Below are positions 900 to 63,953 of a stretch of 64,000 bases of DNA, in pieces. Source of the DNA: an uncultured Candidatus Saccharibacteria bacterium (GTDB taxonomy: Bacteria > Patescibacteriota > Minisyncoccia > Phycocordibacterales > UBA918). How positions within the stretch are numbered: the first letter of the stretch is position 1; every line of letters begins with the position of its first letter. A program made the translations under genes and the position numbers. The stretch lies in assembly GCA_964643955.1 (NCBI GenBank), contig CAZXUO010000001.1, positions 171,828 through 235,827 on the forward strand. Direction: 5' to 3'. The notes under the pieces were generated by a model. The model had not been told where the DNA came from, searched no databases, and was given only the letters and a program-made list of their open reading frames with translations.

Positions 900-920
900 C
901 CACCTTCACCGGTGGTTTTT
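900..920 (+). terminator. Second copy of the ccaccttcaccggtgg-T-run terminator module
   Basis: About 30 bp of similarity to 169-197, including its flanking sequence. Confidence 0.4.
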
Positions 921-3840: not shown

Positions 3841-3908
3841 ACTATAGAAGATATGCCGCACCACAGCAAGAAATCAGCCAGATGCTCCTGATGGTATAAT
3901 CGAAACCA

Positions 3909-4817
3909 ATGACTGCTTTTGTACGCCCCCTGAAGCTCGGATCGATCCTCCTCCTTGCCGTCCTCACCTTTTTTGCGTGGACGATCTCCGCCGCTGCCGC
4001 AGGCACTGCGCTTGAGGACGCAACCGTCAATCTCTACTGTCAATTCAAAACAGGGAACAAAACCTTTAGTTCAAGCGGCAGCGGCGTCTTTGTAAGCGAG
4101 CGCGGCGTCATCCTCACCAACGCCCATGTTGCAAAATACTTTCTTCTGCAAGGCAAAGAAGGGAAGACAACCGGCACGTGTTCGGTCCGCACCGGCTCTC
4201 CTGCAAAAGCCACCTACACTGCCTCGGTCCTCTACATCTCTCCACAGTGGCTCGCTTCCTCTGCAGCAAAGACAAGCGGCACTGGTGAGCACGACTTCGC
4301 GCTCCTCTATGTCACCGGCACAACAAAGGGCGCACTTCCCTCCTCATTTCCAAAACTTCTGATGGAGCTCTTTTCTGACGCGCGCGAAGGAGAGACGGTC
4401 GCCATCGCCGGATACCCAACCGAAAAGCTCGATTTCAAAAAAGTACAAAACAAGCTCGCATTTGTGACCGCGTCCTCGACCATCACGAGCATCCGCACCT
4501 TTAGCACAAACGCATCCGCTGATGTTCTCAGCATCGCATCGTCCGCTGCAGGAAGCGCCGGTGTCTCAGGCGGACCAATCATCAATAAGGCTTCAGAAAT
4601 CGTCGGCATTGCAACAGCGCTCAGTAGTGGAAAGAAAGATCGCACGCTTCGAGCGATTACGCTGCCGTACATAAATAAGACGATCCAATCAGAGACAGGA
4701 CTCCCCCTCAATCTCATTCTCTGGGGCGACCTCCACACACGCGCGCTAAAAACAAAAGATTCAATTTCGTCCGAAACCCTCAAAACTCTCCGCACCTCCC
4801 TCTTCAAGAAAAAATAA
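3909..4817 (+). CDS. Secreted trypsin-like serine protease (S1 family, Trypsin_2-like)
   Basis: N-terminal signal/TM segment. Catalytic triad contexts are present: TNAHV, DFALL, and SGVSGGPI (a GDSGGP-like motif). Confidence 0.65.
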   Translation: MTAFVRPLKLGSILLLAVLTFFAWTISAAAAGTALEDATVNLYCQFKTGNKTFSSSGSGVFVSERGVILTNAHVAKYFLLQGKEGKTTGTCSVRTGSPAKATYTASVLYISPQWLASSAAKTSGTGEHDFALLYVTGTTKGALPSSFPKLLMELFSDAREGETVAIAGYPTEKLDFKKVQNKLAFVTASSTITSIRTFSTNASADVLSIASSAAGSAGVSGGPIINKASEIVGIATALSSGKKDRTLRAITLPYINKTIQSETGLPLNLILWGDLHTRALKTKDSISSETLKTLRTSLFKKK

Positions 4818-4822
4818 TACGA

Positions 4823-5266
4823 CTAAAAATTCCCAGGAAAATCTTCTGGATTAAAGATCTCTACGAGAGGCGTCATTTGTCCGGCAAGTTTTAGTGTTTT
4901 CAATTCCTCAGGCAAAAAGAATCGAATTTCCGCACACTCCTCAGACGGAGTAAAATCAAGATGTTCAAGCTCAATGCGGTACGCGACCACAAACGAATAA
5001 AACCAATTTTCAGTACGTTCATTTTTATGACTCCACACATATACGGGAGATTTGGACATCTTCACCGTCTGCAAACCCATCTCTTCCTCAGTCTCTCGAT
5101 TAAAACCTTCTCGGATGTCTTCACCAAAATCCAAGCCGCCGCCCGGCAATTCCCACTGGTCCTTACGACGTGTCTCGCGAATCATGAGCAGCTTTCCATT
5201 ACGAACACACAAACCTTTGATAGTCACTCTATAGAAAGCATCAGGAAAGAGAGGTGATTGCGCCAT
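4823..5266 (-). CDS. NUDIX hydrolase
   Basis: Nudix box GGGLDFGEDIREGFNRETEEEMGL. Confidence 0.7.
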   Translation of the reverse strand: MAQSPLFPDAFYRVTIKGLCVRNGKLLMIRETRRKDQWELPGGGLDFGEDIREGFNRETEEEMGLQTVKMSKSPVYVWSHKNERTENWFYSFVVAYRIELEHLDFTPSEECAEIRFFLPEELKTLKLAGQMTPLVEIFNPEDFPGNF

Positions 5267-5271
5267 GAATA

Positions 5272-5847
5272 CTAGTTGAACTGATTCATCGCCTGTACGT
5301 GTCCTTCAGCCATGATGATGTCGATTGCTTCAGTGATCTTTTTTGAAACTTTTTTAAGAACGTCGAGCTCAGCTGTTTTGAAATCTCCCATAAGAAAATC
5401 AAGGATCTTCTGCTCACCTTTTGGCTTGCGGAGTTTCCCTGTCGGCGTCGCCGGACAAATACCCACGCGAATACGCACAAAGTCTTTTGTCTTCAGCGTC
5501 TTGATGATTGACTCCACGCCATTATGACCGCCCGAGCTACGCCCAAACGAAATCTTGATCGAGCCGAGTGGAAGATCCATGTCGTCGTATACGACGACGA
5601 GATTCTTTGCTTTTTTTGCGCTCGTCACTATTTTTGCGACCGCGCTCCCCGACTTATTCATAAATGTTTCAGGGAACATGAGAAAAGCGTCATCAGCTTC
5701 TGAAATAAGTGATACATATTTTGCAGACGCAACAGGCGCGGGCATATCATGCGCCTTGAGGAATGCCGCAAGGACAATCCTGCCGGCATTGTGACGCGTC
5801 ATTTCATATTTTTCTCCTGGATTTCCTAATCCAACGATGTAGTGCAT
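5272..5847 (-). CDS. pth: Peptidyl-tRNA hydrolase
   Basis: MHYIVGLGNPGEKY...HNAG...GGHNGV motifs. The start is set at the internal Met. Confidence 0.85.
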   Translation of the reverse strand: MHYIVGLGNPGEKYEMTRHNAGRIVLAAFLKAHDMPAPVASAKYVSLISEADDAFLMFPETFMNKSGSAVAKIVTSAKKAKNLVVVYDDMDLPLGSIKISFGRSSGGHNGVESIIKTLKTKDFVRIRVGICPATPTGKLRKPKGEQKILDFLMGDFKTAELDVLKKVSKKITEAIDIIMAEGHVQAMNQFN

Positions 5848-5920
5848 ATCCGAAACATTGTACCTCAAATGCCAAAAACTTGTCTCGATCAAAACTTAGG
5901 AATATACTAGTGCCAATCGT

Positions 5921-6559
5921 ATGGATAATCACTTCACATCGTCGCGTGATACCAACGTCCCTCCTCCTTCAGAGTCGCAGCCCGAACCAAAAAACAAGAA
6001 AAACGAAAGCTTCTGGGGCGAGCTCGCACGTTTTGCGATCATTGCTGTGATTGTCGTGTTTCCGATTCGCATGTTTATCGCGCAGCCGTTTATCGTCTCG
6101 GGCGCATCGATGGAGCCAACCTTCCAAAACGGCCAATACCTCATCGTTGATCAGATCAGCTACCGCATGGAAGCACCACAGCGCGGTGACGTCGTCATTT
6201 TCCGCTATCCGCGCGATACCTCAAAGTTTTTCATCAAGCGCATCATCGGCCTCCCGGGAGAAACGATAAAAATAGAAGGGGACAGCATGCTCATTTATAA
6301 TCTCGCGCATCCAAACGGATTTGCTATCGACGAAACGTACGTCGAGCACATGGAAAAAGAATCATTTGTGACCCAGACGCTCGGCCCTGACGAATATTTT
6401 GTGCTCGGCGACAATCGCGACGCGAGCTCGGATTCACGCATCTGGGGCATCTTGCCGCGCGAAAATATCGTCGGTCGCGCATTCATCCGGCTCTTCCCTG
6501 TCTCTGAACTTGAGGTGTTCCCGGGACACATCGTGCCCGAAGAAGTTAATCGCTCTTAG
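5921..6559 (+). CDS. lepB: Signal peptidase I (P-type, Ser/Lys dyad)
   Basis: GASMEPTF, KRIIGLPGE and GDNRDASSDSR boxes. Confidence 0.8.
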   Translation: MDNHFTSSRDTNVPPPSESQPEPKNKKNESFWGELARFAIIAVIVVFPIRMFIAQPFIVSGASMEPTFQNGQYLIVDQISYRMEAPQRGDVVIFRYPRDTSKFFIKRIIGLPGETIKIEGDSMLIYNLAHPNGFAIDETYVEHMEKESFVTQTLGPDEYFVLGDNRDASSDSRIWGILPRENIVGRAFIRLFPVSELEVFPGHIVPEEVNRS

Positions 6560-6571
6560 TTCCTGAAACAC

Positions 6572-7741
6572 ATGTCTACACTTTCTCCCGTCGATTTTCT
6601 TAAGCTTGCACACCAGACCGCATACCATTTTGGATTTACGCACATCCAATCACTCAAAAGTCCTGAGCGTGCAAAGAAAATGGCGCGTATCCCGAAAGTG
6701 GGTATGCAAGAGCGACGCATCGACGCATTTGGCGGAGCGCTTGTGTGTGGTGTGACGAACTACCTCGAGAAAGCACTCCATGCAAGCGAGCCTGCATTTT
6801 TCTTCTCAACACAAGAAATGCCGCGCACGAAAGAAATCGCGCTCAACCTCCAGATTGTCGGCGTTAAAAAGAGTATTGCAGAATCGATTCTCATCCAGAC
6901 CATTAGGTCGCTCATCCGTGACGCAGGGTATCCAAATACCTCTATTCGCATCAATTCTCTCGGCGACAACGACTCGACCACGCGCTACCTCCGCGAGCTT
7001 ACGAGTTTTTTCAAAAAACGGCTCGAAGACATGCCGCCGCACGCGCGCGAACTCATGAAAGAGAGTGTACTCACGACACTTCTATATCTGATCGAACACG
7101 ATCACGAGATTGCCGCAAAGAGCCCGAGCCCGCTCGAGTATCTGAGCGACGCGAGCCGCCGACACTTCCGCGAGATCATCGAGCATCTCGACATGACGGA
7201 AACTCCGTACGAGATTGACACGCGCCTCGTCGGACACAACCACTGCTACTCAGATGCGATCTTCTCGCTCGATGTACGAGATGAGGAAAACAACCCGATT
7301 GCCGAGGCACCATTTACCATCCGCGGCGGACGTATCGACGCATTCACCAAGCGCATCCTCAAAGTCGATGTCCCTGCAACGGGCGCCGTCATCATCTTGA
7401 ATAGCAAGAAAGCGCCTGCCCGTATGCCGCAGCCGAAGATCGCTGCATGCCCTTCGGTATTCCTCGTACAGCTCGGTTTTGGTCCAAAAATACGAAGCCT
7501 AATGCTCGTCGATACGCTCCGGCACGCCGGTATCCGCGCGCACCAGGCCTTTGCGAGCGATTCACTCGGTGAGCAGCTCCGCCAGGCAGAAACCCTCGGC
7601 GTGCCGTATTCTCTCATCCTCGGCCAGAAAGAATACGTCGAAAATAGCGTGATTGTGCGCGATATGACCTCCCGTTCCCAGGAACACGTCCCATTCCCCG
7701 ACCTCGTACCCCACCTCCGCCGCACCCTCAAAATACGCTAG
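6572..7741 (+). CDS. HisRS-like class II aaRS paralog. It has HisRS architecture with an anticodon-binding domain, but its motif 2 is degenerate.
   Basis: IRINSLGD matches the HisRS LELNSLG region. The C-terminal about 100 aa match the class II anticodon-binding fold (VFLVQLGFGPK...GVPYSLILGQKE...VIVRDM). The FRHERPQ.GR motif-2 arginines are replaced (FFFSTQEMPRTKE). Confidence 0.5.
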   Translation: MSTLSPVDFLKLAHQTAYHFGFTHIQSLKSPERAKKMARIPKVGMQERRIDAFGGALVCGVTNYLEKALHASEPAFFFSTQEMPRTKEIALNLQIVGVKKSIAESILIQTIRSLIRDAGYPNTSIRINSLGDNDSTTRYLRELTSFFKKRLEDMPPHARELMKESVLTTLLYLIEHDHEIAAKSPSPLEYLSDASRRHFREIIEHLDMTETPYEIDTRLVGHNHCYSDAIFSLDVRDEENNPIAEAPFTIRGGRIDAFTKRILKVDVPATGAVIILNSKKAPARMPQPKIAACPSVFLVQLGFGPKIRSLMLVDTLRHAGIRAHQAFASDSLGEQLRQAETLGVPYSLILGQKEYVENSVIVRDMTSRSQEHVPFPDLVPHLRRTLKIR

Positions 7742-16023: not shown

Positions 16024-16095
16024 GGCCCTATCGTCTAACGGTTAGGACGGAGGCTTTTCAAGCCTTAAATCGGGGTTCGATTCCCCGTAGGGTCA
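16024..16095 (+). tRNA. tRNA-Glu (anticodon TTC)
   Basis: D-loop TCGTCTAACGG (typical of Glu). Anticodon loop TTTTCAA. T-arm GGGGTTCGATTCCCC. Confidence 0.85.
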
Positions 16096-16106
16096 TGGGT
16101 TTAGGA

Positions 16107-16146
16107 AAATAGCTCTCAAACGTTTTGTTTGGGAGCTATTTTCGTA
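16107..16146 (+). terminator. Hairpin terminator after tRNA-Glu (aaaatagctc...gagctatttt)
   Basis: 10-bp outer stem with an inner caaac/gtttg stem, followed by a T-run. Confidence 0.55.
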
Positions 16147-16240
16147 GACCCAACTATGATGCCTGGGAGGCAAATCGAACGGCCGGAGGAGACTTGCTTT
16201 CCGAGGCGGGCTCGCGACCGAGCGAAGCGAGAGTTGTGAG

Positions 16241-16259
16241 TCGATTCCCCGTAGGGTCA
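16241..16259 (+). repeat. Perfect 19-bp direct repeat of the tRNA-Glu 3' end (tcgattccccgtagggtca; original at 16077-16095)
   Basis: Exact match. No cloverleaf can be folded around the copy. Confidence 0.8.
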
Positions 16260-16265
16260 CATGAG

Positions 16266-16300: not shown

Positions 16301-16425
16301 TATGTGAAGGCGGAGCCATGTCGCTTCGCGACAGGCGAGCCGAGATCGACAAGTACTTAGTTAAAATCTGCCGGAGGACTGATTTTACTTAGTAACTTGT
16401 GACCACAAGGACAGCTGGAGAAAGC

Positions 16426-43607: not shown

Positions 43608-44846
43608 TTACCCACTTCGTGTGCCCCATCCTTTTGTATATCCCACTTTAAGGAACATCTTCCTAAGACCACGCATAAATGACGTATCCGGGATTGATAC
43701 GCTCACTACATTAAACAACCAAAATAGATATGACCCCAGTAACACAAGCGTTAATAAATTCGCATATATAAATTCCGGCACGAGTGATATTCGAAGCAAC
43801 CAATCTATACGATCCTTATCAGCATAAAACTTCATGAGCCAAAGCTGGAAACTATACCAAAGAATAACTTGAGCGAGTGAGAGCGCAATAATACATTGAA
43901 ATATCACATGTGACATCACCCCTCTTTCTGCAAACATATACGACACGATAATAAGAAAGAGTGTCCCCACAAACATGACATGCCCGATAATATCCTGGAT
44001 GATACCCGGTGCGAACTTCATCTCCGACACAACGGTTACACCTCCATAGACCCATCGTGTGCGTTGTCTCCATAGATGGGAAAATCTTGCAGGCACTTCA
44101 GTCCATGCGTATGCATGTGGCGCAAGGCGGACATGCCAACCGAGAGACTTAATACGAGAAGTAATCTCATAATCCTCGATAAGGTGCCCTTCTTTAAAGC
44201 CTCCGACCGCATAGAGCACGTCCGCACGAAATGCCGTAAGCATACCGTGCATAACGAGCGGACCATAAAAAAATCCTTCGTCGGCAAGGCGTGTTGCGTT
44301 AAAACCAAGGTATTCAAGCCCCTGAAGGCGGGTCAAGAAATTAGCATTCTTATTGAGCACGCGACATTGCGAACATGCTGCGCCGATACGCTCATCGGAA
44401 AGCACGCCATGTACGAGTGCCTTCACTGTGTTTCTATCGACAACGACATCATCATCGAGTGTAAGAATAATATCGGGACGCACGCCGGCATCTCGCATAG
44501 AAAAAAGTGCATAATTTATTGCACCTGCCTTCATCTTATTAACAGGAGTCCGAAGCAATGTCACCCGATCCGACATCTTTGCTATTGAAGCAAAATAAGC
44601 GTACTCATGTTCATACGACTCTGGAGTACAGTCATCAACAACGTAAATGCACAATTCGTCGTTCCAACGAAGAAGGTCAGAAACGAGCTTTACAGTGAGT
44701 GGACCGGGCTTAAATGAAGGAATGATGGCGACAACAGCACAAGGATGTGATGTTGCTGACTGCACCTTGTTTTGAAATCGGTGAGGAACAACAAAACTCG
44801 CAATATGCTGCATTGACGAAATTGAGTTTTGTGAAAAATCACCCAT
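43608..44846 (-). CDS. Processive GT2 polysaccharide synthase (IcaA/PgaC/NodC-like)
   Basis: VVDDC, LDDDVVV, EDYEIT and RQRTRW (QxxRW-type) motifs, plus C-terminal TM helices. Confidence 0.7.
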   Translation of the reverse strand: MGDFSQNSISSMQHIASFVVPHRFQNKVQSATSHPCAVVAIIPSFKPGPLTVKLVSDLLRWNDELCIYVVDDCTPESYEHEYAYFASIAKMSDRVTLLRTPVNKMKAGAINYALFSMRDAGVRPDIILTLDDDVVVDRNTVKALVHGVLSDERIGAACSQCRVLNKNANFLTRLQGLEYLGFNATRLADEGFFYGPLVMHGMLTAFRADVLYAVGGFKEGHLIEDYEITSRIKSLGWHVRLAPHAYAWTEVPARFSHLWRQRTRWVYGGVTVVSEMKFAPGIIQDIIGHVMFVGTLFLIIVSYMFAERGVMSHVIFQCIIALSLAQVILWYSFQLWLMKFYADKDRIDWLLRISLVPEFIYANLLTLVLLGSYLFWLFNVVSVSIPDTSFMRGLRKMFLKVGYTKGWGTRSG

Positions 44847-44966
44847 ATAAATATAGATAAAAGAAAGATTGGCTTCGACACGACGGTACAGATTTTTTTG
44901 TAAAAGTCAAGAGACGGTGTCGGAAAATACTGACAAATTGGCGCTCATACAAAGAGCGAAGGAGGT

Positions 44967-47210
44967 ATGCTACTATCGAGAAATATGGACGAAAAAAATA
45001 CGCTGGCAACTCCGCCAATCCCCGAAGAATTCCTCAAACCGTACGATGCACGTGCGCTTGAAGATGCCACCTATGTTGCATGGGAAGAGAGCGGGTACTT
45101 CAACCCTGATATTTGTATTGAAAAAGGCGTGACAAAGCCCGACGCCGAGCCATTTGCGATTGTCCTCCCTCCTCCAAATGTCACTGGAATCCTCCACATG
45201 GGACATGCAGCGATGCTCGCGGTCGAAGATATTTTCATCCGTTTCGCGCGCATGCAGGGTAAGCGCACGCTCTGGATTCCTGGTACCGACTCCGCGGCAA
45301 TCGCTACCCAGTCGAAAGTTGAAAGCATCATATATAAAGAGGAAAACAAGACCCGCTACGATTACGGTCGCGAGGAATTTCTCAAGAAAGTAAATGCTTT
45401 TGCGCTCGAAAGCCAGAGTATGATCTTGAGCCAGCTCCGCAAGATGGGCTCATCGCTTGATTGGTCGCGCCTCGCGTACACACTTGACGACACCCGCTAC
45501 AAAGCGGTAATGGAGGCGTTTGTTCGAATGTACAACGCCGGGCTCATCTACCGCGGCATGCGCATCGTCAACTGGGATCCAAAAATGCAAACGACCGTCT
45601 CTGACGATGAGGTTGATCATGAGGAAGTCACTGAGTCCCTCTACTATCTAAAATACGGACCATTTACGATCGCGACCGCGCGACCTGAAACAAAGTTTGG
45701 AGACAAGTATGTCGTGATGCACCCAGAGGACGAGCGCTATAACGCATGGGAGCATGGCCAAAAAATAGAACTCGAGTGGATTAACGGCCCCATTACCGCA
45801 ACCGTCATAAAAGACGCGGCGATTGATATGGAATTTGGTACGGGCGTCATGACGATCACCCCTTGGCACGACCTCGCTGACTTTGAAATTGCTGAACGTC
45901 ACAAACTTGAAAAAGAGCAGGTGATCGACTACAACGGCAAGCTGCTTCCCATTGCAGGAGAAGAATTTGCAGGGCTCCACATCAAGAAAGCGCGGCCACT
46001 CATTGTCGAAAAGCTCAAGGAAAAAGGCCTCGTTGAGAAAATCGATGAGAAATACACGCACAACGTAGCGACCAACAGTCGCGGCGGTGGCATGATCGAA
46101 CCACAAATCAAAATGCAGTGGTTTGTTGCGGTTGATAAAGAGTTCACTATTCCCCATTCTGAAATCGCAGGAATCGAGAGTGGTTCGATGACCACACTCA
46201 AGCGCCTCATGCGCGCTGCAGTAGAAGGGGGACAAGTAAAAATCACGCCGGACAATTTTGAAAAAATCTACTATCACTGGATAGAAAACCTGCACGACTG
46301 GTGCATCTCACGCCAGATTTGGTTTGGACACCGCATCCCGGTGTGGTATCGCGGTGATGAGATCTTCTGCGGAACAGGAGCGCCCGATGGCGACGGATGG
46401 GAGCAAGACTCCGACACGCTCGATACGTGGTTCTCCTCTGGTCTTTGGACATTCTCGACACTCGGCTGGCCAGAAAAAACACTTGATCTTGAGACCTATC
46501 ACCCGACCGCGATCCTTGAGACCGGCCACGATATTCTTTTCTTCTGGGTTGCACGCATGGTCCTTATGTCGGGCTTTCACCTTGGTACCGTACCGTTTAA
46601 AGATGTGTACCTCCACGGCATGGTGCGCGACGGACAAGGACGCAAGATGTCGAAATCCCTCGGTAACATCATCGACCCTGTCGATATGATCACAAAGTAT
46701 GGCGCTGACGCGACCCGCCTCTCGCTCATTATTGGCGCGACGCCCGGCACGGACATCAAACTTTCTGAAGACAAAGTCCGCGGCTACAAACATTTTGCAA
46801 ACAAGCTCTGGAATATCACACGCTTTGTTCTCACCAATACCGCCGGTGCCTCACTTCAAAAACCTGCGGCACTTCCGGCACGCGATGAAGAAATACTTGC
46901 GACACTTGGCGCAACAGTTGCTGAAATCACTAAAGACATCGAGGAATATCGCCTCTACATGGCAGGAGAAAAAGCGTATCACTATGTCTGGCACGAATTT
47001 GCCGACATCATCCTCGAAGAATCAAAGGCGATCCTTCAGAGCGAAGATGCAAATGCAAAAGCTGCGCGCCAGTATGTGCTCTACACATGTCTTACCACCT
47101 CACTCAAACTCCTCCACCCTTTCATGCCGTTTGTGACCGAAGCAATCTGGCAACGACTTCCCAAAAAAGACGCCGACATGCTCATTGTTGCGCCGTGGCC
47201 AAAAGCCTAG
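44967..47210 (+). CDS. valS: Valyl-tRNA synthetase (short form, lacking the C-terminal coiled-coil)
   Basis: PPPNVTGILHMGHA (HIGH) and RKMSKSLGN (KMSKS) motifs. The CP1 insertion between the two motifs has typical ValRS length. Confidence 0.75.
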   Translation: MLLSRNMDEKNTLATPPIPEEFLKPYDARALEDATYVAWEESGYFNPDICIEKGVTKPDAEPFAIVLPPPNVTGILHMGHAAMLAVEDIFIRFARMQGKRTLWIPGTDSAAIATQSKVESIIYKEENKTRYDYGREEFLKKVNAFALESQSMILSQLRKMGSSLDWSRLAYTLDDTRYKAVMEAFVRMYNAGLIYRGMRIVNWDPKMQTTVSDDEVDHEEVTESLYYLKYGPFTIATARPETKFGDKYVVMHPEDERYNAWEHGQKIELEWINGPITATVIKDAAIDMEFGTGVMTITPWHDLADFEIAERHKLEKEQVIDYNGKLLPIAGEEFAGLHIKKARPLIVEKLKEKGLVEKIDEKYTHNVATNSRGGGMIEPQIKMQWFVAVDKEFTIPHSEIAGIESGSMTTLKRLMRAAVEGGQVKITPDNFEKIYYHWIENLHDWCISRQIWFGHRIPVWYRGDEIFCGTGAPDGDGWEQDSDTLDTWFSSGLWTFSTLGWPEKTLDLETYHPTAILETGHDILFFWVARMVLMSGFHLGTVPFKDVYLHGMVRDGQGRKMSKSLGNIIDPVDMITKYGADATRLSLIIGATPGTDIKLSEDKVRGYKHFANKLWNITRFVLTNTAGASLQKPAALPARDEEILATLGATVAEITKDIEEYRLYMAGEKAYHYVWHEFADIILEESKAILQSEDANAKAARQYVLYTCLTTSLKLLHPFMPFVTEAIWQRLPKKDADMLIVAPWPKA

Positions 47211-47265
47211 GGATATCCTCCATTGATCCATATCCCGCACAAACCCTCTGCTACAATACTAGTGC

Positions 47266-47949
47266 ATGGACTGGTTCTATATCTCAATTGCACTTGCTGC
47301 AGGTTTAGTTCCTGCGCTTTTTTGGCTCTGGTTTTGGCTTCGTGAAGATAAAGCACGACCCGAGCCGCGCACACTCATTATTTCCTCATTCCTCGCAGGC
47401 ATGCTCGTCGTTCCTGCAGTGTTGCCACTACAAAAATTTGCCACACAACGTTTCTCGGGTGACGAACTGATTTTTGTATGGGTCGTTATCGAAGAAGTGC
47501 TGAAATACAGCGCAGCGCTCATTGTTGTGCTTTGGAACAAAGCGGTCGATGAGCCAATCGACGCAATTATCTACATGATTACGATTGCACTCGGCTTCTC
47601 TGCACTTGAGAATGCGCTCTTCATTTTCAATCCATTGGTCGCCGGACAATTTATCGAGTCAATCATCACCGGACATTTCCGTTTTCTTGGTGCAACTTTG
47701 CTTCACGTACTCGCATCCGGCACCGTTGGTGTGTTGATGGCATTTGCATTTTATAAACGAAAAGCGGTGCGTATTGCGTATGCAACGTTTGGGTTATTCA
47801 TAGCCATTGCATTGCATGCGCTATTCAACTTTTCTATAATGGGAGCACGCGGAGAGACTATACTTTCGGTCTTCCTACTTGTCTGGATTGGCATCATCAT
47901 ACTCTTCCTTATTTTTGAAAAAGTTAAGCGCATCGCGCGACCTCGATAA
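47266..47949 (+). CDS. PrsW-family intramembrane protease-like protein
   Basis: A multi-TM protein with an EEVLKY (EExxK) motif and a conserved His-containing helix. Confidence 0.45.
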   Translation: MDWFYISIALAAGLVPALFWLWFWLREDKARPEPRTLIISSFLAGMLVVPAVLPLQKFATQRFSGDELIFVWVVIEEVLKYSAALIVVLWNKAVDEPIDAIIYMITIALGFSALENALFIFNPLVAGQFIESIITGHFRFLGATLLHVLASGTVGVLMAFAFYKRKAVRIAYATFGLFIAIALHALFNFSIMGARGETILSVFLLVWIGIIILFLIFEKVKRIARPR

Positions 47950-47956
47950 CATAGCT

Positions 47957-48442
47957 ATGGCTCGAAAACCTTCATTCATCCAACGTCTCACTGGTGCAGT
48001 GTCTATTCGTGAATATGACGATGAGATAGAAGATGACCTCGATGAGGATATGCGCGACGATGACGCGCGCGAAAGTGCATGGCAAGAGCCTGCACAAGTC
48101 CAAGAAGAAGGTGAACTCCCTATCGATATGTACCAGACCGGAGAAAAGATTGTCATTCGCGCACTCATTGCCGGTGTAAGTCCAGATGACCTCGATATAG
48201 CGATCACACGCGACATGGTGACTATCAAAGGAGGACGCGAGGAAAACCGCGAGGCACCGGACGAAGACTATTACCATCGCGAGCTCTACTGGGGTGGATT
48301 TTCACGCACCATTCTCCTTCCCGAAGAGATTTTGATTGACGAAGCAGAAGCAAAAGAGAAGCACGGTATGCTCGAAATTATTTTGCCAAAAGTAGACAAG
48401 GACCGCAGTACGAGACTCAAGGTAAAGACAAAGGCGGGATAA
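47957..48442 (+). CDS. Hsp20/alpha-crystallin small heat-shock protein
   Basis: Alpha-crystallin domain (DMYQTGEKIVIRA...GMLEIILPK) with an acidic N-terminus. Confidence 0.8.
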   Translation: MARKPSFIQRLTGAVSIREYDDEIEDDLDEDMRDDDARESAWQEPAQVQEEGELPIDMYQTGEKIVIRALIAGVSPDDLDIAITRDMVTIKGGREENREAPDEDYYHRELYWGGFSRTILLPEEILIDEAEAKEKHGMLEIILPKVDKDRSTRLKVKTKAG

Positions 48443-48447
48443 GAAAT

Positions 48448-48482
48448 AATAAAACCGCCGGCCTAAAGGCCGGCGGTTTTTT
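48448..48482 (+). terminator. Terminator (aaaaccgccggcc taaa ggccggcggtttttt)
   Basis: Perfect 11-bp stem. Confidence 0.8.
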
Positions 48483-48483
48483 G

Positions 48484-48502
48484 GTGCTTGGGGCCGGGTT
48501 CG
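48484..48502 (-). repeat. 19-bp direct copy of the tRNA-Phe 3' end (gtgcttggggccgggttcg; original at 48670-48688)
   Basis: Exact repeat lying 168 bp beyond the tRNA 3' end. Confidence 0.8.
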
Positions 48503-48670
48503 GTCACGAATCACTAAGTCTTTTGTTCACTTCGTTCCAAAAGACTAAGTGTTCGCGACCCCACCTTGGCGCTTCATCCCGCAACGCGGGCGCACCTCCG
48601 GCTTTCTCACCCAGCCAGCAATACATGAGAATAAAAAAGGCCTGCTCGAAGCAGGTCTTTTTTATTCTTG

Positions 48671-48743
48671 TGCTTGGGGCCGGGTTCGAACCGGCGACCC
48701 CTTCCTCTTCAGGGAAGTGCTCTACCAACTGAGCTACCCAAGC
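48671..48743 (-). tRNA. tRNA-Phe (anticodon GAA)
   Basis: Reverse complement is GCTTGGGTAGCTCAGTTGGTAGAGC...CTGAAGA...GGTTCGAACCCGGCCCCAAGCA. Confidence 0.85.
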
Positions 48744-48796
48744 GTCGCTCTATGCTATCGCAAAAAGAGCCTCTAAACAAGGCAAAAAAGCCTTAT

Positions 48797-49087
48797 TTAC
48801 TCCATCATCGAGTCAAAAGCCTTGAACCCCGGCAATTCCCCTATTCCGAGACGAAACTGCTCGTACGAGCCTCCAAAGGCCTCAAAATAGGGCTCAAGGA
48901 CGTAGAAGTAGACTGCAAATGGCAGACCGATGAGGAGCGCAAACCAGATGATCCTGATCCAAAAATCAATAATGCTATTACGGTAGAGTTTCTTAACGAG
49001 AGCAGTGTTCTCGCGCACCAAATCGCTGTTCTCCTTGATTAAACGACCAAGCTCACTGTGAATATCAGATTCCATAGTGCTATTCAT
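48797..49087 (-). CDS. Small hypothetical membrane protein
   Basis: ORF with two TM helices. Confidence 0.3.
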   Translation of the reverse strand: MNSTMESDIHSELGRLIKENSDLVRENTALVKKLYRNSIIDFWIRIIWFALLIGLPFAVYFYVLEPYFEAFGGSYEQFRLGIGELPGFKAFDSMME

Positions 49088-49217
49088 TATATCAAAGCAG
49101 CTCTCATTTAAGCCAAAAGTTGTTCAGTAGCATTGTTAAAAAGCAGATACTTGACTTTTCTTGAAATTTATAGTTAAATCCTCGACAGGAAACGCACCTA
49201 TACACGGAGGATCTCGC

Positions 49218-49974: not shown

Positions 49975-49996
49975 GTGCCCTCGGCAGGAATCGAAC
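49975..49996 (-). repeat. 22-bp direct copy of the tRNA-Arg 3' end (gtgccctcggcaggaatcgaac; original at 50116-50137)
   Basis: Exact repeat lying 118 bp beyond the tRNA 3' end. Confidence 0.8.
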
Positions 49997-50113
49997 ATTA
50001 CATGTTCAGTACAGGTTGCCGATAATTTTTTCACACGTTCAAAATTATCTGGCAACCTTTTCGATTCCGTGCGACCAACACAAAAAGCCGGACGGGAGTC
50101 CGACTCTTTATGT

Positions 50114-50188
50114 TGGTGCCCTCGGCAGGAATCGAACCTACATCTTTCCCTTAGGACGGGACTGCTCTATCCATTGAGCTACGAAGGC
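50114..50188 (-). tRNA. tRNA-Arg (anticodon CCT), CCA encoded
   Basis: Acceptor GCCTTCG/CGAGGGC with one G-U pair. D-arm GCTCAATGGATAGAGC. Anticodon loop GTCCTAA. T-arm GTAGGTTCGATTCCTGC. The anticodon stem has one mismatch. Confidence 0.7.
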
Positions 50189-57587: not shown

Positions 57588-58042
57588 TTCGATTACTTAT
57601 ACCTCGTAATACATATCAGCATATCATGAACGAACAACAGCCCCCGAAGGGGCTGTTGTTTTCTGGTGCCGATAAGCCGAATTCTGTACGCAGATATACT
57701 CTGCGTGATAGTCATTTATCTGGGATGATTGTTACCAATCACCTCAAGCGGCACTTCTTTTGTAGGCATATGCTGCTACAAAAGACACGGCCTTGCGCGC
57801 AGGTAGGAATTTAGCCGTTTCACCTCGCACGTCGCCATGCAAGCTCATCTCATCATTGCTGATGAGATGCTCTCATCCTTTCGTAGAGAGCGTCTCTGCT
57901 CGCATCCCGAAGATTTCTCTCGATGGGCGTTACCCACTACCGTCCTCCTCTATTGCTAGAGGGCGTGTTCGGACTTTCCTCCCGCACCCATATTAGGTAC
58001 GAGCGACTATCTGGCACAACAATATTATACAATACGAAACAA

Positions 58043-58622: not shown

Positions 58623-61600
58623 CTACGGACACGAGTACGAGAAGGTCGACCCTGCAAACGCTTCGTGTACAAGGTTGTAGAGATTAAGATCGTATTGCTG
58701 CAACTCGGACTTTGTATTTACGTAATTGTGAATACCATTTGGATTTGTTGCTTGGAGATTTGTGTTGAAGTACGACTGCACACCCTCTGCCCAATATTCT
58801 TCGTGATTAGTGCGTGCGTACGTATTTGCCCACAAGCCTGCTGACATTGCTACCTGGTATGCCTGCTGTACTCGACCGACAAATGATCCATCGAGACCGA
58901 GATTGAGAATTGAGTGTGCAAATTCGTGCACAAAGACGCTCTCTCCGCGGTATCGATCAGCGGTATAACAGAGGAGATTTTCTTCAGCTGCTGTTGAGTA
59001 CGGCATAAACGTGGTGCCGCCGAGACCACGTGCGCGGTTGTCCCAATCCGTTCCTGGGAACTGCGAGTAGAGATTGCGGTGCTCTGGAATATCAGTCGTC
59101 ACTTCATTCTTTGACATGATACCCACGCGATGTCCGTTTCCGTTCATCGTGACAAATACATCAGCGCGCTTCTCGAGCATACGTGACGCAAGTCGAGCGG
59201 CTTCAGCAACCGCAGCATTTGGCGTAGCCGAAGATGCGGCAAAACGCATACCCTTATAATCGCAATACTTGTCGTACCACGGATCAAGTCCGAGACCCTG
59301 TGCTTCACTATCACTAATCGTTCTCACCGTACACACTGCTGATGCCTGCGGTGTCTGTGGTTGCGTCGGAGTGGTTGGTGTCGTTGGTTGTGTTGGTACC
59401 GTCGGCTGCGTGACCACGGGTGCAGTTACCTTAAACGAGATCGAGCTACAGTTATTATTTTCGTTTGACTCTCCGACAAGATTGGTCACATCTGCGCAGA
59501 AATAGACGCGATGATCTCCAGCGGTCGGCGACCATACGATAGACACCGGTGCCGAGAGACCTCCTGCGGTAATTCCGGTTACAAGCGGATCAATTCCACC
59601 AATACGACCACTCGAAGATGTACATGATTCATTGTTGAGACAGAACCGTGTGTAGAAGACATCCGCAATACCCCCTGTGTTACGCACATTCGCCATAAAT
59701 GTGATTGGCGTACCTGCAACGAGCGTGTTCGTGAGTCGTGTAAGACCTTCAGGACGAAGTTCTGGCAATACTGGTGCCTGAACGGGTGGTACATAGATTG
59801 GCTGCTGCGGCGTCTGCGGTTGTTGTGGTGCTGATGGCGCTCCTACTCCCGTACCATTTCCTGAAAGATAATTCATGACCGGCGTGTACGCAGGCTTTCG
59901 TGAATCACCTCCCTGACGCACCAGACCAAAACTATTTTCGGTGGTCTCAAAGTCAGCATTACCAATACCCGACCAATCAGAATCACGATATTCGTATACA
60001 AGCACTGGCGAGATACCAACTGCTGAGATTGCCTGCACTGACTTCAAGATAATGTCAGTCTGCTGCGATTCACTTCTTCCTGGACCTTGTGATGCCATTC
60101 CCGTCTCAGCGGTGTAGATACGCTTTTCAGGATAGCGATTCTTTAGTTGGCCAAAGAATGACGGAATCTGATCGAATGCGCGCTGATAGTTTGCGTCAAT
60201 TCCCTGCCCAGGCAGATACACGTCCATACCGATCCAGTCGATTGAAGGACGTACTGCGTCAATAAATGCGAAGAGTCGATTGAGATTTTGTGCGGTCATT
60301 GCCTCAGTGACGCCAGGTGCGCCTGAGATAGACATCGTGATTGGCGCACTGCTGTGAGCGCGGATAGCCGAGCGAGCAACCGCCATCGTCTCACCAAGCT
60401 CTGAGAGATACGACGTGCGCATCGCGAGCGTGTCGGCAGAATCCCAATTTGAGAAGGTGCGATTTGCGAGTGCACCAGGACGGAGATCAGGGAGTGTCCA
60501 ATTTGGCTCCCACAGATGATTACCCGTTCGATAGTCGGTGATGTTTGCTTCGTTGGTCACCTGCCAGAGATCGACATTGCCCGCAAACTGTCGCGCGAGG
60601 TAGTCCATGTGTGTACGCGTGAGTTCAAGATATTCACTATGAGTGAATTGTTGTGAACGCGCATTCAAACGCGGAATAAGGTTGAGCTGTACTTTAAGTC
60701 CTTTTGATTTTGCGTACGCAACGGCTTCCTTGTATCGATCGATGTGCGCTTGATTGAAGGTGATGTTTGTTGGACTTGCGATGTTGAGCATCGTGTCCCA
60801 CTCCTGTACATAGAGACGCACCCACGCAACCTCACCTGCGATATCATCGATTGCGCGCTTGAAGTCAGCAAGTACGGGGCCGTCTGCGGTATTACTTGAG
60901 CCTTGCATCTGTACTGTAAATCCAAATTCTGCGCTACCTCCAACAACCGGAGGAATCACCGGCTCAACAGGAACAACCGGTACTACAGGCACGACAGGAG
61001 GAACGACAGCTCCTGAGACCTCAAGCTCGATTGAAGCGCAGTTATTGTCTCGATTTACCTCAGGCACATCATCGTCTGTGTTTACACAGAAATAAAGTGT
61101 GTGGTCTCCCGCTTCTGCAGTCCATGTGCGCGATACTGGCAACGACGTCTCTCCTGACTGGAGTGGCAAACCTTGTGCAGAGACACGATGACCCGGATTA
61201 AGTCGGCCATTTGCATTCGTCAAACAATTTGGATTGTCGATACAGAAACGCGCCCATGAGTCTGGTGCAGGAGCATTACCGATATTTCGAATGTACGCGA
61301 TAAATGTCACGTACGAACCTGTCGTGATTGGCCCCGTGCCAATACGAGCAACTCCTGTTGGTACAAGATCGTGCTGGCCTATCGGCGTTGGAATGATTGG
61401 TGTTTCAATATCAGGAACTTCTATCGGATACGTAGGGACGACTGGGACCGTCGGCGTCACGGGTACGATCGGCACTTGAGCAGCAGTTCCCTCCACATAC
61501 ACCGGAAATGAGGTGCAGTTGTTGTCTTCGTTTGATTCAGTGACTGCCCTGCTTACATCTGCACAGAAATAAATCGTATGTGTACCTCCGGTCGCAGTCC

Positions 61601-63953
61601 ACGTGGCTGCAACCGGAGTTGAGACGGTGTTTTGACTCATTATTCCGATCGTATGGCTTGAACCGATCGTACCTGCTGAACTATCGAGACACTCGTCGTT
61701 GTCAACGCAAAAACGTGCCTGCGATGTACCTGCGACGCCGCCGAGATTGCGCACATTTGAGAGAAATGTCACGGGATCGCCTGCGCGAATAATGCCTGTG
61801 CCTAGGCGTGTGAAATTGACTGGATTGAGATCAGGCTGGATGGTAGTAACCGGAGGTACTACCTGTGTTTGAGAGACAACCGTAACAGTAACGTGCGCGC
61901 AGTTGTTATTTTCGTTTGATTCACTAAGTGCTCGAGTAACATCGGTACAGAAATATACCGTGTACGTTCCTGCGCTCGAAGGGACCCAGCTACGAGTTAC
62001 GAGGCCATGAGTCTGAGATTGCTGGAGTGATGGGATGCTCTGATCAGTACCAAGACGTCCAGACGTACTTGTCGTGCAGTTTTCATTATCAACGCATATA
62101 CGTGCGAATGATGAATTTGCAACTCCACCAGCATTCCCGACATATCCCATCACACTAATCGGTGTACCGAGGTACACCGCACCCGCAGGTGACGCAGAGA
62201 ATCCAGAAACATAGAGATCGGGCTGGATCGTCGTTACCGGAGGTACGATAGGCTCAGAAACAGTCGCCGCGTTTACACTAAAAGTGAGTGACGTACAGTT
62301 GTTGTCTTCGTTTGATTCAGTCACCTGTGCACTTGGACTTGGATCTGCGCAGAAATAAATCGTGTGCGTACCCGCGGTCGCAGCCCACGTACTTGAAGTC
62401 ATCGTGCGACTCGTTTGATTGCTTCCGAGCGATCCACCTGAAGTCGAGAGTCGATGTCCGTCGCCAAGTCGCGTATTTGCCGAACCATAGCAATCTCCTT
62501 CCCCTCGACTATCGATACAAAAGCGCGCCCACGAGTCAGGGGCTGTTGCATTACCGTAGTTGCGGACTGCAGCAGAAAATACGACCGGCTGCCCCGCAGT
62601 AATTGCTCCCGATGGCGAACGCATGAGGTTGATCGGAATAAGATCCGCACGCAATGTCGGCGCTTCTACCGGCGCATTCACGCTGAAAGAAAGTGACGTA
62701 CAGTTGTTTGAAAGGGATCCTTCTGCTACGCGCGGGTTACCAGTATTGGCACACATATAGACCGTGTGATTGCCTGCGACTGCTGTCCACGTGCGTGCTT
62801 GTGACGCAGAACTATTTGGATCGAGCGCGGGAATAGTCTGATCTGAACCGATGTACCCTGCGTCATTGTTAAGACAATCTGCATTGTTGAGACAGAAACG
62901 CACCCACGGCCCACCCACCGAACGAGTCGCGCCTACGTTGCGCACTGAACCAGAGAAGGTCATGAGCTGGCCAGCGGTTATCGTCCCTGATGGCGAACGC
63001 GTGAGATTGATCGCAGAAAAATCAGCAGGAGTTGCGACAGGTGCAGTGCCTACGCTAAACGTCATTGACGTACAGTTGTTACTTTCGTTTGACTCATTGA
63101 CCTGCGGACTTGGACTTGGGTCTGCACAGAAATAAATCGTGTGCGTGCCTTGCGTTGCGGTCCATGTACGTGATGCAGACGAGGACGTCTGACCTGCGGG
63201 GAGCGGACTTCCCGATTCAGAAAGTCGATGACCAGGATCGAGACGGCCGTTTGTTGACGTGAGACAGCTTGAATTATCGATACAGAAGCGTGCCCATGAG
63301 TCGGGTGCTTCTGCGGTACCTTGGTTGCGCACCGCCGCGGTAAAGGTTACTTCTGTACCCGCAGTCAATGTGCCTGATGGTGAGCGCGAGAGACCAACAG
63401 GAATGAGGTCTGCACGCGCTGAAGAAGACGTATCGGTTGCTGCATTCACGGTAAACGTGAGCGAAGCACAGTTGTTGTTGAGTGTACTTTCTGGTACAGG
63501 AGGGTTACCAGTGTTTACACAAAAGTATGCCGTATGAGTACCGGCAGTCGCATTCCATGCACGCGTGTATGTATCTGACACCTGATCAGCATTGAGTGCC
63601 GTTGTCGACGGATCAAAACCTATGTGACCCGTATCGCTCGTCAAACAATTTGGATTATCGATACAGAAGCGTGCCCATGGTGCGTATGGATTGTCACCAC
63701 CTTGATTGCGTACTGCCGCAGAAAAATAAACCTGCGACCCTTCAGTGATCGTGCCCGAAGGATTGCGTGAGAAGTTTGCAGGCACAAGATCAGGTGTACC
63801 TGATGTCTGCGCCACCATACTTCCCTGCAACAGCTGCACCAAACGCTCAAGAAGCGACACCTGCGTCACGAGTGACGACGATGTCTGTGCGAACGCAGGC
63901 ATTGCGATAGCAAAAGCGAGTGTGAGCGAAAGGATTCCGGTAGTTAATCTCAT
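58623..63953 (-). CDS. Giant secreted surface protein (1776 aa): signal peptide, about 10 CARDB-like repeat domains, a clan GH-A-like glycoside hydrolase domain, further CARDB repeats and a C-terminal HEFAH zincin-like domain
   Basis: The repeated unit reads DL.P.....P.G.I..G..V.F...VRN.G...A.....ARFC.DN..C...(T/S)G..TIYFC.D....V.ES.E.NNC. The GH domain contains WQVTNEAN. The zincin-like motif is VHEFAHSIL. Confidence 0.7.
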   Translation of the reverse strand: MRLTTGILSLTLAFAIAMPAFAQTSSSLVTQVSLLERLVQLLQGSMVAQTSGTPDLVPANFSRNPSGTITEGSQVYFSAAVRNQGGDNPYAPWARFCIDNPNCLTSDTGHIGFDPSTTALNADQVSDTYTRAWNATAGTHTAYFCVNTGNPPVPESTLNNNCASLTFTVNAATDTSSSARADLIPVGLSRSPSGTLTAGTEVTFTAAVRNQGTAEAPDSWARFCIDNSSCLTSTNGRLDPGHRLSESGSPLPAGQTSSSASRTWTATQGTHTIYFCADPSPSPQVNESNESNNCTSMTFSVGTAPVATPADFSAINLTRSPSGTITAGQLMTFSGSVRNVGATRSVGGPWVRFCLNNADCLNNDAGYIGSDQTIPALDPNSSASQARTWTAVAGNHTVYMCANTGNPRVAEGSLSNNCTSLSFSVNAPVEAPTLRADLIPINLMRSPSGAITAGQPVVFSAAVRNYGNATAPDSWARFCIDSRGEGDCYGSANTRLGDGHRLSTSGGSLGSNQTSRTMTSSTWAATAGTHTIYFCADPSPSAQVTESNEDNNCTSLTFSVNAATVSEPIVPPVTTIQPDLYVSGFSASPAGAVYLGTPISVMGYVGNAGGVANSSFARICVDNENCTTSTSGRLGTDQSIPSLQQSQTHGLVTRSWVPSSAGTYTVYFCTDVTRALSESNENNNCAHVTVTVVSQTQVVPPVTTIQPDLNPVNFTRLGTGIIRAGDPVTFLSNVRNLGGVAGTSQARFCVDNDECLDSSAGTIGSSHTIGIMSQNTVSTPVAATWTATGGTHTIYFCADVSRAVTESNEDNNCTSFPVYVEGTAAQVPIVPVTPTVPVVPTYPIEVPDIETPIIPTPIGQHDLVPTGVARIGTGPITTGSYVTFIAYIRNIGNAPAPDSWARFCIDNPNCLTNANGRLNPGHRVSAQGLPLQSGETSLPVSRTWTAEAGDHTLYFCVNTDDDVPEVNRDNNCASIELEVSGAVVPPVVPVVPVVPVEPVIPPVVGGSAEFGFTVQMQGSSNTADGPVLADFKRAIDDIAGEVAWVRLYVQEWDTMLNIASPTNITFNQAHIDRYKEAVAYAKSKGLKVQLNLIPRLNARSQQFTHSEYLELTRTHMDYLARQFAGNVDLWQVTNEANITDYRTGNHLWEPNWTLPDLRPGALANRTFSNWDSADTLAMRTSYLSELGETMAVARSAIRAHSSAPITMSISGAPGVTEAMTAQNLNRLFAFIDAVRPSIDWIGMDVYLPGQGIDANYQRAFDQIPSFFGQLKNRYPEKRIYTAETGMASQGPGRSESQQTDIILKSVQAISAVGISPVLVYEYRDSDWSGIGNADFETTENSFGLVRQGGDSRKPAYTPVMNYLSGNGTGVGAPSAPQQPQTPQQPIYVPPVQAPVLPELRPEGLTRLTNTLVAGTPITFMANVRNTGGIADVFYTRFCLNNESCTSSSGRIGGIDPLVTGITAGGLSAPVSIVWSPTAGDHRVYFCADVTNLVGESNENNNCSSISFKVTAPVVTQPTVPTQPTTPTTPTQPQTPQASAVCTVRTISDSEAQGLGLDPWYDKYCDYKGMRFAASSATPNAAVAEAARLASRMLEKRADVFVTMNGNGHRVGIMSKNEVTTDIPEHRNLYSQFPGTDWDNRARGLGGTTFMPYSTAAEENLLCYTADRYRGESVFVHEFAHSILNLGLDGSFVGRVQQAYQVAMSAGLWANTYARTNHEEYWAEGVQSYFNTNLQATNPNGIHNYVNTKSELQQYDLNLYNLVHEAFAGSTFSYSCP

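Follow-up and report, generated by a model that had tools for sequence, protein, structure and literature searches.

Why does a tRNA gene have a second copy of its own 3′ end a short distance downstream? The question is raised by the tRNA-Phe gene in a 64,000-nucleotide stretch of a Candidatus Saccharibacteria contig (CAZXUO010000001.1; hereafter the window), in which the 19-nt sequence GTGCTTGGGGCCGGGTTCG occurs exactly twice, once over the tRNA gene's 3′ end and once beyond it (Table 1). This 19-nt repeat forms the outer arm of a structured unit of ~190 nt that recurs and turns over rapidly. Units of this kind make up a hitherto undescribed family in Patescibacteria, widespread and fast-changing, that is common behind the tRNA genes of Paceibacteria. 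We tentatively favor the reading that the unit is a non-autonomous insertion cassette, which is weighed below against three other explanations.

The unit behind tRNA-Phe

A prediction made earlier from the window sequence alone (the original prediction) had reported a 19-bp copy of the tRNA-Phe 3′ end downstream of the gene. The copy is exact, no further match to GTGCTTGGGGCCGGGTTCG was found in the window even when three mismatches were allowed, and none of 100 dinucleotide-shuffled sequences contained two matches. The distance between the copies had been given as 168 bp and is corrected here to a gap of 167 nt (186 nt start to start). No credible open reading frame (ORF) was found in this spacer. 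At the tRNA-Phe unit the independent assemblies L093, L095, and L096 (L numbers denote related loci) are identical to the window and a fourth, L094, is 97% identical; since the pattern is present in all four, the unit is not an assembly artifact.

Read on the tRNA strand, the unit consists of the tRNA 3′ end (X), a terminator hairpin, a degenerate antisense copy of the tRNA end (Xbar), a Y-shaped insert comprising P2 and P3, and the second X. When folded, Xbar forms the 5′ arm of a closing stem whose partner is X copy 2. The terminator hairpin noted in the original prediction was found in the spacer, with a core (48641–48655) that sits inside a more extended hairpin, and we count it into the unit because relatives duplicate the terminator together with X. 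The 13-bp inverted repeat described previously is also present (48513–48525 and 48538–48550), although it is complementary at 12 rather than all 13 positions; its central mismatch (T·T on the tRNA strand) is a conserved feature of the longer hairpin P3, the last pair of which, in the Phe unit, involves the first base of X copy 2.

The distal copy of the tRNA end (48483–48502, minus strand) reads ...CCCAAGCA-CCA, i.e., it has an encoded CCA, in contrast to ...CCCAAGCA-CAA in the tRNA-Phe gene. An equivalent difference was seen at the tRNA-Val of L023. As most other copies are without CCA, its presence in the Phe distal copy is probably due to chance, and an origin of the copies from retro-copied mature tRNA was ruled out on the same grounds.

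Table 1. Coordinates of the tRNA-linked units and their parts (window positions unless a related locus is named)
Feature	Position	Strand	Basis or remark
tRNA-Phe(GAA) gene, without encoded CCA	48671–48743	−	ARAGORN; Rfam tRNA 72.2 bits
X copy 1 (S1), from T-loop C56 to one base beyond the discriminator (tRNA strand), within functional tRNA	48670–48688	−	Exact 19-mer
Terminator-type hairpin with A-tract and U-tract, directly 3′ of tRNA	48628–48669	−	Duplicated along with X in L047, L052, and L091/L092
Xbar (A), degenerate antisense copy of tRNA 3′ end, UUGCUGGCUGGGUGAG	48606–48621	−	Minimum free energy fold
P2: 3-bp closing stem GCC/GGU, conserved RSA/GA internal loop, variable hairpin	48563–48602	−	Preceded by junction J1 (AAA)
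P3: 59-nt hairpin GGUCGCGAA-CACUUAG...CUUAGUG-AUUCGUGACC, conserved U·U mismatch	48502–48560	−	Fold
X copy 2 (S2), 19-nt repeat, 3′ arm of closing stem	48484–48502	−	Model R1 match 48493–48616 covers inner part
Bidirectional terminator common to the unit and the convergent hsp20 gene	48451–48482	.	Directly after X copy 2
hsp20 gene, convergent with tRNA-Phe	47957–48442	+	
Unit behind tRNA-Glu, subtype B	16097–16260	+	R1 51 bits
Glu unit, terminator	16104–16143	+	
Glu unit, Xbar	16166–16179	+	
Glu unit, P2	16182–16207	+	
Glu unit, P3	16209–16240	+	
Glu unit, X copy	16242–16260	+	
Second tandem unit behind tRNA-Glu	16307–16404	+	R1 34 bits, model positions 13–102
Unit behind tRNA-Arg, simpler subtype C	49975–50116	−	Identical in L091/L092
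Arg unit, terminator	50075–50116	−	
Arg unit, Xbar GGAAUCGAA	50060–50068	−	
Arg unit, one bulged hairpin	50013–50058	−	
Arg unit, X copy	about 49975–49997	−	
Unit not behind a tRNA, L033	18214–18320	+	R1 46 bits; follows terminator of a protein-coding gene
Cargo unit, L023: tRNA-Ser(GCU), four co-oriented ORFs, hairpin, Xbar-insert-X	3639–7020	−	3.3 kb

Recurrence and a conserved fold

The original prediction had pointed to similar arrangements at two other tRNA genes of the window, and both are real (tRNA-Glu, 16077–16095 repeated at 16242–16260; tRNA-Arg, 50116–50137 repeated at about 49975–49997); the same layout was not found behind the window tRNA-Ser and tRNA-Val genes. We extended the comparison to the best 80 related loci, from metagenome-assembled genomes (MAGs) of Paceibacteria (Kaiserbacteria-like). 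The valyl-tRNA synthetase (ValRS) encoded next to the window unit shares 93% identity with its counterpart in an uncultured Patescibacteria MAG. Among these loci and the window, 17 tRNAs are followed by an exact copy of 15 nt or more from their 3′ end, and in 16 of the 17 cases the copies are 141–239 nt apart from start to start; L037 spans an assembly gap. With three mismatches in 15 allowed, 24 of 182 tRNA genes (~13%) qualify, against approximately one expected by chance, distributed as Phe 8/41, Glu 5/20, Val 4/42, Arg 3/33, Gly 3/17, and Ser 1/14. The layout was seen behind Phe, Glu, Val, Arg, Gly, Ser, and Leu tRNA genes of the related Paceibacteria loci, and the start of the copy almost always falls in the T-loop (positions 54–59).

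A covariance model built from the spacers (R1) was run on 1.25 Mb of related loci and identified 32 members. Twenty-seven of them are behind a tRNA on the same strand at a distance of 36–240 nt (one at 3183 nt), and most of the remainder are located at the ends of contigs. The model gave one weak match when applied to 638 kb of metagenome DNA from unrelated sources. The number of tRNA genes with a downstream copy and the position of the model members bear out the earlier proposal that a recurring process, not coincidence, underlies the pattern. Searches of the window and 16 related loci with the Rfam families, at both gathering and permissive thresholds, returned only tRNAs and RNase P, so the spacers match no known structured RNA in that collection, and we found no description in the literature of such elements in bacteria of the candidate phyla radiation. 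A hand-written structure descriptor was dropped in favor of the covariance model because it gave 35 matches in shuffled sequence compared with 49 in real sequence. Pattern scans of viral contigs with two conserved motifs produced only chance matches, all inside coding sequence, and the single scan of metagenome sequence, with a two-anchor pattern, was too unspecific in GC-rich DNA, with approximately 117 of 120 matches due to chance and only L119, L133, and L179 being real.

Beyond what the original prediction had noted, the spacers have in common a conserved fold and each contains an antisense copy of the tRNA end. Minimum free energy folding of 18 units led repeatedly to a single three-way junction, which is closed by Xbar:X. 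RNAalifold applied to an unbiased MAFFT alignment of 15 untrimmed units produced the same junction, with double changes at 21 of the 23 pairs, and in a hand-fitted trimmed alignment pairing was 89.8%, a value equaled by none of 500 shuffles and compared with less than 42% in every slid control. Xbar is complementary to the T-loop, the 3′ strand of the T-stem and the 3′ strand of the acceptor stem of the tRNA; it is perfect over 18–21 nt in L119 and L133, and in places it is split by a small hairpin. The junction GAAA is common to the spacers of different tRNAs and genomes. The 3-bp closing stem of P2 is paired in all 15 members, with four to five pair types, and covaries (GCC/GGC, GUC/GAC, GGC/GCC, AGC/GCU, AAC/GUU), and P3, which adjoins the sense copy X, occurs in several subtypes (CACUUAG...CUUAGUG with a U·U mismatch, GGGCAGGAGG...CCUGACGC, and GCGACCGAGGUGAGCGAC...).

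The tRNA-sense strand was predicted to fold better than its complement in 18 of 18 units, by a mean of 9 kcal/mol, and G·U pairs outnumber A·C pairs by 18 to 3. The selected structure is therefore that of a single strand, either RNA or DNA, of tRNA polarity, and not a protein site on duplex DNA. As the T-loop bases are paired in Xbar:X, the stem resembles the gene duplex and not the tRNA fold. GCGAAGC is known as an unusually stable DNA mini-hairpin. On the sense strand of the elements this heptamer shows an 18-fold enrichment (six occurrences in 2.1 kb vs. 0.157 per kb), and it does not occur on their antisense strand; it is located at hairpin apices in the window (16222–16228), L059, L092, and L119, and is also found in the Escherichia coli RtT unit discussed below. 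Neither GCGAAAGC nor the other GNRA-type motifs that we tested occurred in the elements.

The three instances in the window (Phe, Glu, and Arg) represent three different subtypes. The second of the two tandem units behind tRNA-Glu retains an intact P2 (GGC-GGA-GCCAUGUCGC...GCGACAGGC-GA-GCC) and P3 (GUACUUAG...ACUUAGUAACUUGUGAC), with a closing stem that has decayed to 4 bp and no X copy. It closely resembles the second unit behind the tRNA-Leu of L002. The unit behind tRNA-Arg has one bulged hairpin (AGGUUGCCAGAUAAUUUU...AAAAUUAUCGGCAACCU) followed by GUACUGAAC, its X copy shows weaker homology reaching back to the variable loop, and it was not detected by R1. An Arg-type hairpin is also present in the 5′-side unit of the L007 tRNA-Val, and a fragment of one at the L002 tRNA-Val.

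Turnover, module exchange and cargo

Between related lineages the units vary in presence, subtype, copy number, and state of decay. The element is present at 8 of 41 orthologous tRNA-Phe loci, and empty tRNA-Phe sites were observed in L218–L223, relatives with ~80%-identical Hsp20. In L091/L092, whose Hsp20 protein is identical to that of the window and whose flanking genes are ~89% identical to the window's at the nucleotide level, tRNA-Phe is followed by a different subtype, in at least two tandem units of 190 nt; 1.5 kb away the tRNA-Arg element is the same as that of the window. At the L224 locus one full unit is succeeded by two truncated remnants, each with a P3 arm and an X at its end. 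Distal units that have lost the closing stem and kept P2/P3 occur in L002, L006, and L059 as well as at the window Glu locus, and in L001, L002, and L091 X copy 2 is shortened to 12–15 nt, with the acceptor end lost. The direct repeat runs through the terminator in L047, L052, and L091 (56–66 nt), and therefore the repeated unit is X plus terminator plus Xbar plus insert.

The P2/P3 modules are common to units at different tRNAs, and Xbar and X match the local tRNA (seven tRNA species). For instance, the P3 of the L092 Phe unit differs from that of the L119 Glu unit by a compensatory U-A to C-G change, the P2 of the L224 Phe unit is the same as the P2 of the L119 Glu unit, and L017 Glu and L047 Arg form a further module-sharing pair. 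These sequence relationships suggest that P2/P3 modules have moved horizontally between tRNA loci. Conservation of the insert in L001 relative to the window is 95.5%, compared with 84–87% for neighboring genes and 93% for the adjacent orf92. Divergence of the window region 44400–49200 from L091 and L001 is mosaic, being 84–89% identity from ValRS to hsp20 and 93–95% on the tRNA-Phe to orf92 side, with an identical tRNA-Arg element, a pattern suggesting that recombination has had breakpoints in or close to the tRNA-linked elements.

In every case, Xbar mirrors what lies directly upstream of the terminator hairpin. In the proximal unit of L006/L007, X comprises the last tRNA bases plus trailer and not the T-loop, and the Xbar of the L033 unit mirrors a short sequence (GUUCGCUUUA) just after the terminator of a protein gene. 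Mirror-image units were identified upstream of tRNAs in L007 (35–200), L023 (7021–7185, minus strand), and L133 (about 780–941). In these, the first 18–24 nt of tRNA-Val or tRNA-Ser are duplicated ~160 nt upstream, following the native promoter, and a hairpin, an insert and an antisense copy lie between the two 5′-end copies; the tRNA-Ser genes of L023 and L133 have units at both ends. A strong R1 member in L179 (756–1000, minus strand; 67 bits) is behind a 58-nt tRNA-like sequence that is not called by ARAGORN and that is possibly a decayed tRNA or the gene of some other small RNA.

One unit carries genes. In L023, 3.1 kb of cargo is placed exactly between X and the hairpin-Xbar-insert-X that follows tRNA-Ser(GCU), and its ORFs encode proteins of 241 aa (ORF1, an ORFan), 217 aa, 227 aa (an HNH homing endonuclease that contains PF18780 repeats), and 105 aa. 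Homing by this HNH endonuclease is an unlikely cause of the insertion because the tRNA target is intact after it.

Candidate explanations and known look-alikes

In the reading that we tentatively favor, the unit is selfish DNA, a cassette whose enzyme would be encoded elsewhere in the genome and whose Xbar:X stem would mimic the target. The single-stranded unit would fold such that Xbar:X reproduces the sequence of the target duplex, with P2 and P3 and their conserved unpaired bases acting as a handle for recognition by a protein. Strand exchange with the chromosomal X would then insert the unit, giving the order X – cargo/terminator – Xbar – insert – X, the same topology as is found in integron cassettes and in CTXphi genomes after integration. 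New units would enter next to the tRNA, older ones would be pushed outward and decay, and recombination or replication slippage between X copies would amplify or delete units. The tRNA would stay intact since the unit supplies X plus its own terminator. Such a cassette would explain the paired T-loop bases, the position of the cargo between X and Xbar, the co-orientation with the tRNA, the intact proximal and decayed distal units, the replacement of one subtype by another, and the undamaged tRNA.

In CTXphi-type integrative mobile elements exploiting Xer (IMEX), the single-stranded attP folds to mimic dif and is integrated by the host XerCD. Like the units described here, these elements have inverted and direct copies of the target, ~90 nt apart, that can be folded into a duplex mimic of the target, they encode no recombinase, and the integrated order of the copies is the same (X-genome-Xbar-loop-X); however, their target is dif rather than a tRNA end and they comprise a phage genome rather than 150–200 nt. 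Integron cassettes share the topology X – cargo – Xbar – structured loop – X, with cargo that is co-oriented and often ORFan, arrays that grow at one end, and non-autonomous units, and their attC sites are imperfect single-strand hairpins at the 3′ end of the unit that are defined by structure, in which certain unpaired or mismatched bases are conserved but the sequence otherwise is hardly so. In contrast to integrons, the present family is without the GTTRRRY/RYYYAAC core (by inspection the junctions are ...GUGAC/CGA.. or ..GACGC/CGA..), its repeat is 12–29 nt and target-specific, most units carry a terminator alone, folding involves the sense strand of the adjacent gene, and no IntI, attI or Pc is nearby.

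Several observations weigh against an insertion cassette. A tblastn search with XerC found no tyrosine recombinase in 1.3 Mb of related loci, the small units hold no ORF, the L023 cargo proteins had no recombinase match in Pfam, PHROG or PADLOC, and the pattern scans of viral contigs and metagenome sequence revealed no free copy, whether excised or borne by a plasmid or phage. Among the Hsp20 relatives no base-for-base alignment of empty and filled sites was obtained, because gene order differs in the relatives that have empty sites. The Xbar arm of the window Phe unit is degenerate (7 of 9 inner pairs), and mobility would require both Xbar and X to be retargeted at each new tRNA, for which no demonstrated mechanism is on offer. 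Plain unequal crossing-over can also yield tandem arrays and deletions. Finally, the sole studied analog, the E. coli rtT, is known as a processed RNA and not as a mobile element.

That analog, the poorly understood RtT (Rfam RF00391; small RNA gene rttR; the tyrT-distal 178-bp repeats), is the only known look-alike of the present family. It too is directly behind a tRNA on the same strand, and its unit ends in the last 19 nt of tRNA-Tyr, starting from T-loop A58, as the present units end in a copy of their tRNA. The RtT closing stem (GGGGAAGGAU:AUCCUUCCCC in the Rfam consensus) likewise pairs an antisense segment with the copied tRNA-Tyr end, and in both families this stem, weak as it is in the window Phe unit, encloses a multi-hairpin domain. 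RtT and the window Phe unit also both have “U-GAGAA” in place of “UUCGAA” after the antisense arm. The tyrT-tyrV locus of E. coli K-12 contains four tandem RtT units, and of 5426 complete E. coli genomes 4726 have RtT, each at one to nine places. Nevertheless, RtT has no terminator hairpin between tRNA and unit, includes the CCA, has a different inner fold, and is restricted to enterobacterial tRNA-Tyr, whereas the present family is associated with at least seven tRNA species and has several subtypes and a cargo-bearing version. The RF00391 model had no match in the present loci at the gathering threshold, E ≤ 10 or E ≤ 5, and R1 had none in the E. coli tyrT locus at E ≤ 1; since the architecture is common but neither covariance model finds the other family, we regard RtT as something that works like the present units and not as a member of their family. 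No RtT was found in phages, and its plasmid matches were all to non-mobilizable records, some of them chromosome-sized, which we read as misfiled chromosomal sequence. RtT has been reported to be processed from the tyrT transcript and to be of unknown function (PMC3318445), and the tyrT/RtT region has an unexplained rise in coverage in “mobilome” libraries enriched for circular DNA under stress (10.1101/2024.07.17.603846).

The RtT precedent leads to a second explanation, the main rival of the cassette and in our judgment somewhat less probable than it, in which the unit is a processed RNA from the tRNA trailer and a functional analog of rtT. Read-through from the tRNA promoter would transcribe hairpin-Xbar-insert-X, and the Xbar:X stem with its discriminator would imitate the acceptor/T helix such that RNase Z or exonucleases and the CCA-adding enzyme would trim and stabilize the RNA; the Y-shaped insert would have a regulatory or protein-binding role, and gene conversion and unequal crossing-over would keep the identity with the tRNA. 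The position of the element, co-oriented with the tRNA and directly downstream of it, is consistent with such an RNA, as are the folding specific to the tRNA-sense strand with its tolerance of G·U, the terminator that normally follows X copy 2, and the RtT/RttR of E. coli, which has the same closing stem, is annotated as a small RNA and is reported to be processed from the tyrT transcript (PMC3318445; 10.1101/2024.07.17.603846). However, in nearly all units a strong intrinsic terminator stands between tRNA and element with no promoter-like site after it, which argues for low expression of the unit. The tRNA-like 3′ end is not conserved, as X copy 2 is truncated in three of the loci described above (L001, L002, and L091), and the T-loop bases are paired, unlike those of a tRNA. 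The higher conservation of the insert than of most neighboring genes between the window and L001 would fit a functional RNA, but the excess is small, because orf92 is conserved almost as well. The patchy occurrence (13% of tRNAs), the subtype replaced in a close relative, and the decayed remnants are unlike a housekeeping RNA, and the absence of all the tested GNRA-type loop motifs also counts against a trailer RNA. A trailer RNA and an insertion cassette are not mutually exclusive.

Explanations that require neither are considerably less probable. The tyrT repeats have classically been assumed to be functionless products of replication errors that arose without an enzyme, and by analogy local errors alone (unequal crossing-over or slippage together with hairpin-templated strand switching at the tRNA terminator) might have extended the terminator palindrome (X-hairpin-Xbar) and duplicated X. 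We consider this improbable. In L119, L133, and L007, X-hairpin-Xbar is indeed a long palindrome centered on the terminator loop, the repeats through the terminator in L047, L052, and L091 are as a tandem duplication predicts, and the variable number of RtT places per E. coli genome is compatible with such errors, but they leave unexplained both the conserved, covarying P2/P3 insert behind seven different tRNAs in many genomes and the replacement of one subtype by another at a single locus. A direct repeat from the T-loop to the 3′ end is also the classic signature of integrase-mediated insertion into tRNA genes, and the repeats could be ordinary attL/attR scars of a large tRNA-integrated island or prophage with a tyrosine integrase, the interior of which was lost; we hold this to be very unlikely. 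It agrees with the flanking of each insert by the tRNA 3′ part and with the one 3.3-kb island so flanked. Against it, the spacers are tightly clustered in length, with the 16 exact-copy cases within the narrow range given above and one further case at 3303 nt, random decay would not produce the same covarying fold each time, no integrase or remnant was found at any locus, and the island cargo has none. The comparison with tRNA-targeting islands and their integrase-less derivatives (cis-mobilizable elements, or CIMEs, and satellite tycheposons) is similarly divided: these have the same flanking repeat, restored tRNA, and tandem accretion, but they are kilobases long, use duplex att sites and an integrase, and lack both an antisense copy and a single-strand fold that is conserved.

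Among other candidates that we rejected were ribozymes (hammerhead, hepatitis delta virus, and other) and group I, group II or bulge-helix-bulge introns in the T-loop: there was no Rfam match, no omega-G or GUGYG ends were seen by inspection at the junctions, and a strong terminator follows the first copy. A derivative of a miniature inverted-repeat transposable element or insertion sequence was also rejected, in that the ends (the terminator side vs. ..GUGAC) are not inverted repeats and the repeat length, 12–66 nt, is not fixed.

If the units are indeed cassettes, they would represent a new way for DNA to home harmlessly to essential genes, by means of a target-copying stem and a structural handle, in the smallest bacterial genomes known, and would make sense of the tyrT repeats, which have been a puzzle for 45 years. 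A broader proposal, which we offer as speculative and on balance unlikely, is that Patescibacteria harbor an unrecognized class of miniature, target-programmable cassettes, each with a conserved, single-stranded Y-shaped P2/P3 handle and a two-strand target stem, that would be inserted beside gene ends, mostly in tRNA T-loops, by an enzyme encoded elsewhere and would regenerate the gene and supply a terminator, and that the RtT/tyrT repeats of E. coli are a relic or relative of the same principle. If the units are instead RNAs, they would form a new and large family of trailer RNAs that mimic tRNAs, with one for each tRNA species, and this in a phylum that to our knowledge has almost no characterized non-coding RNAs. 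In either case the family is absent from Rfam and is associated with approximately one in eight of the tRNA genes in these genomes. Its units mark sites at which strains vary strongly and will confuse both island finders and tRNA annotation.

Elsewhere in the window, we identified a bacterial RNase P RNA of class A (57657–58022, minus strand; 134 bits) and a 1776-aa ORF (58623–63953, minus strand) with internal repeats of ~380–400 nt (repeat families D1–D4, D6, and D8), which probably encodes a large repetitive surface protein. A 46-nt direct repeat with 80% identity, its copies 724 nt apart (157–202 and 881–926, plus strand), ends in CACCGGUGGUUUUU.

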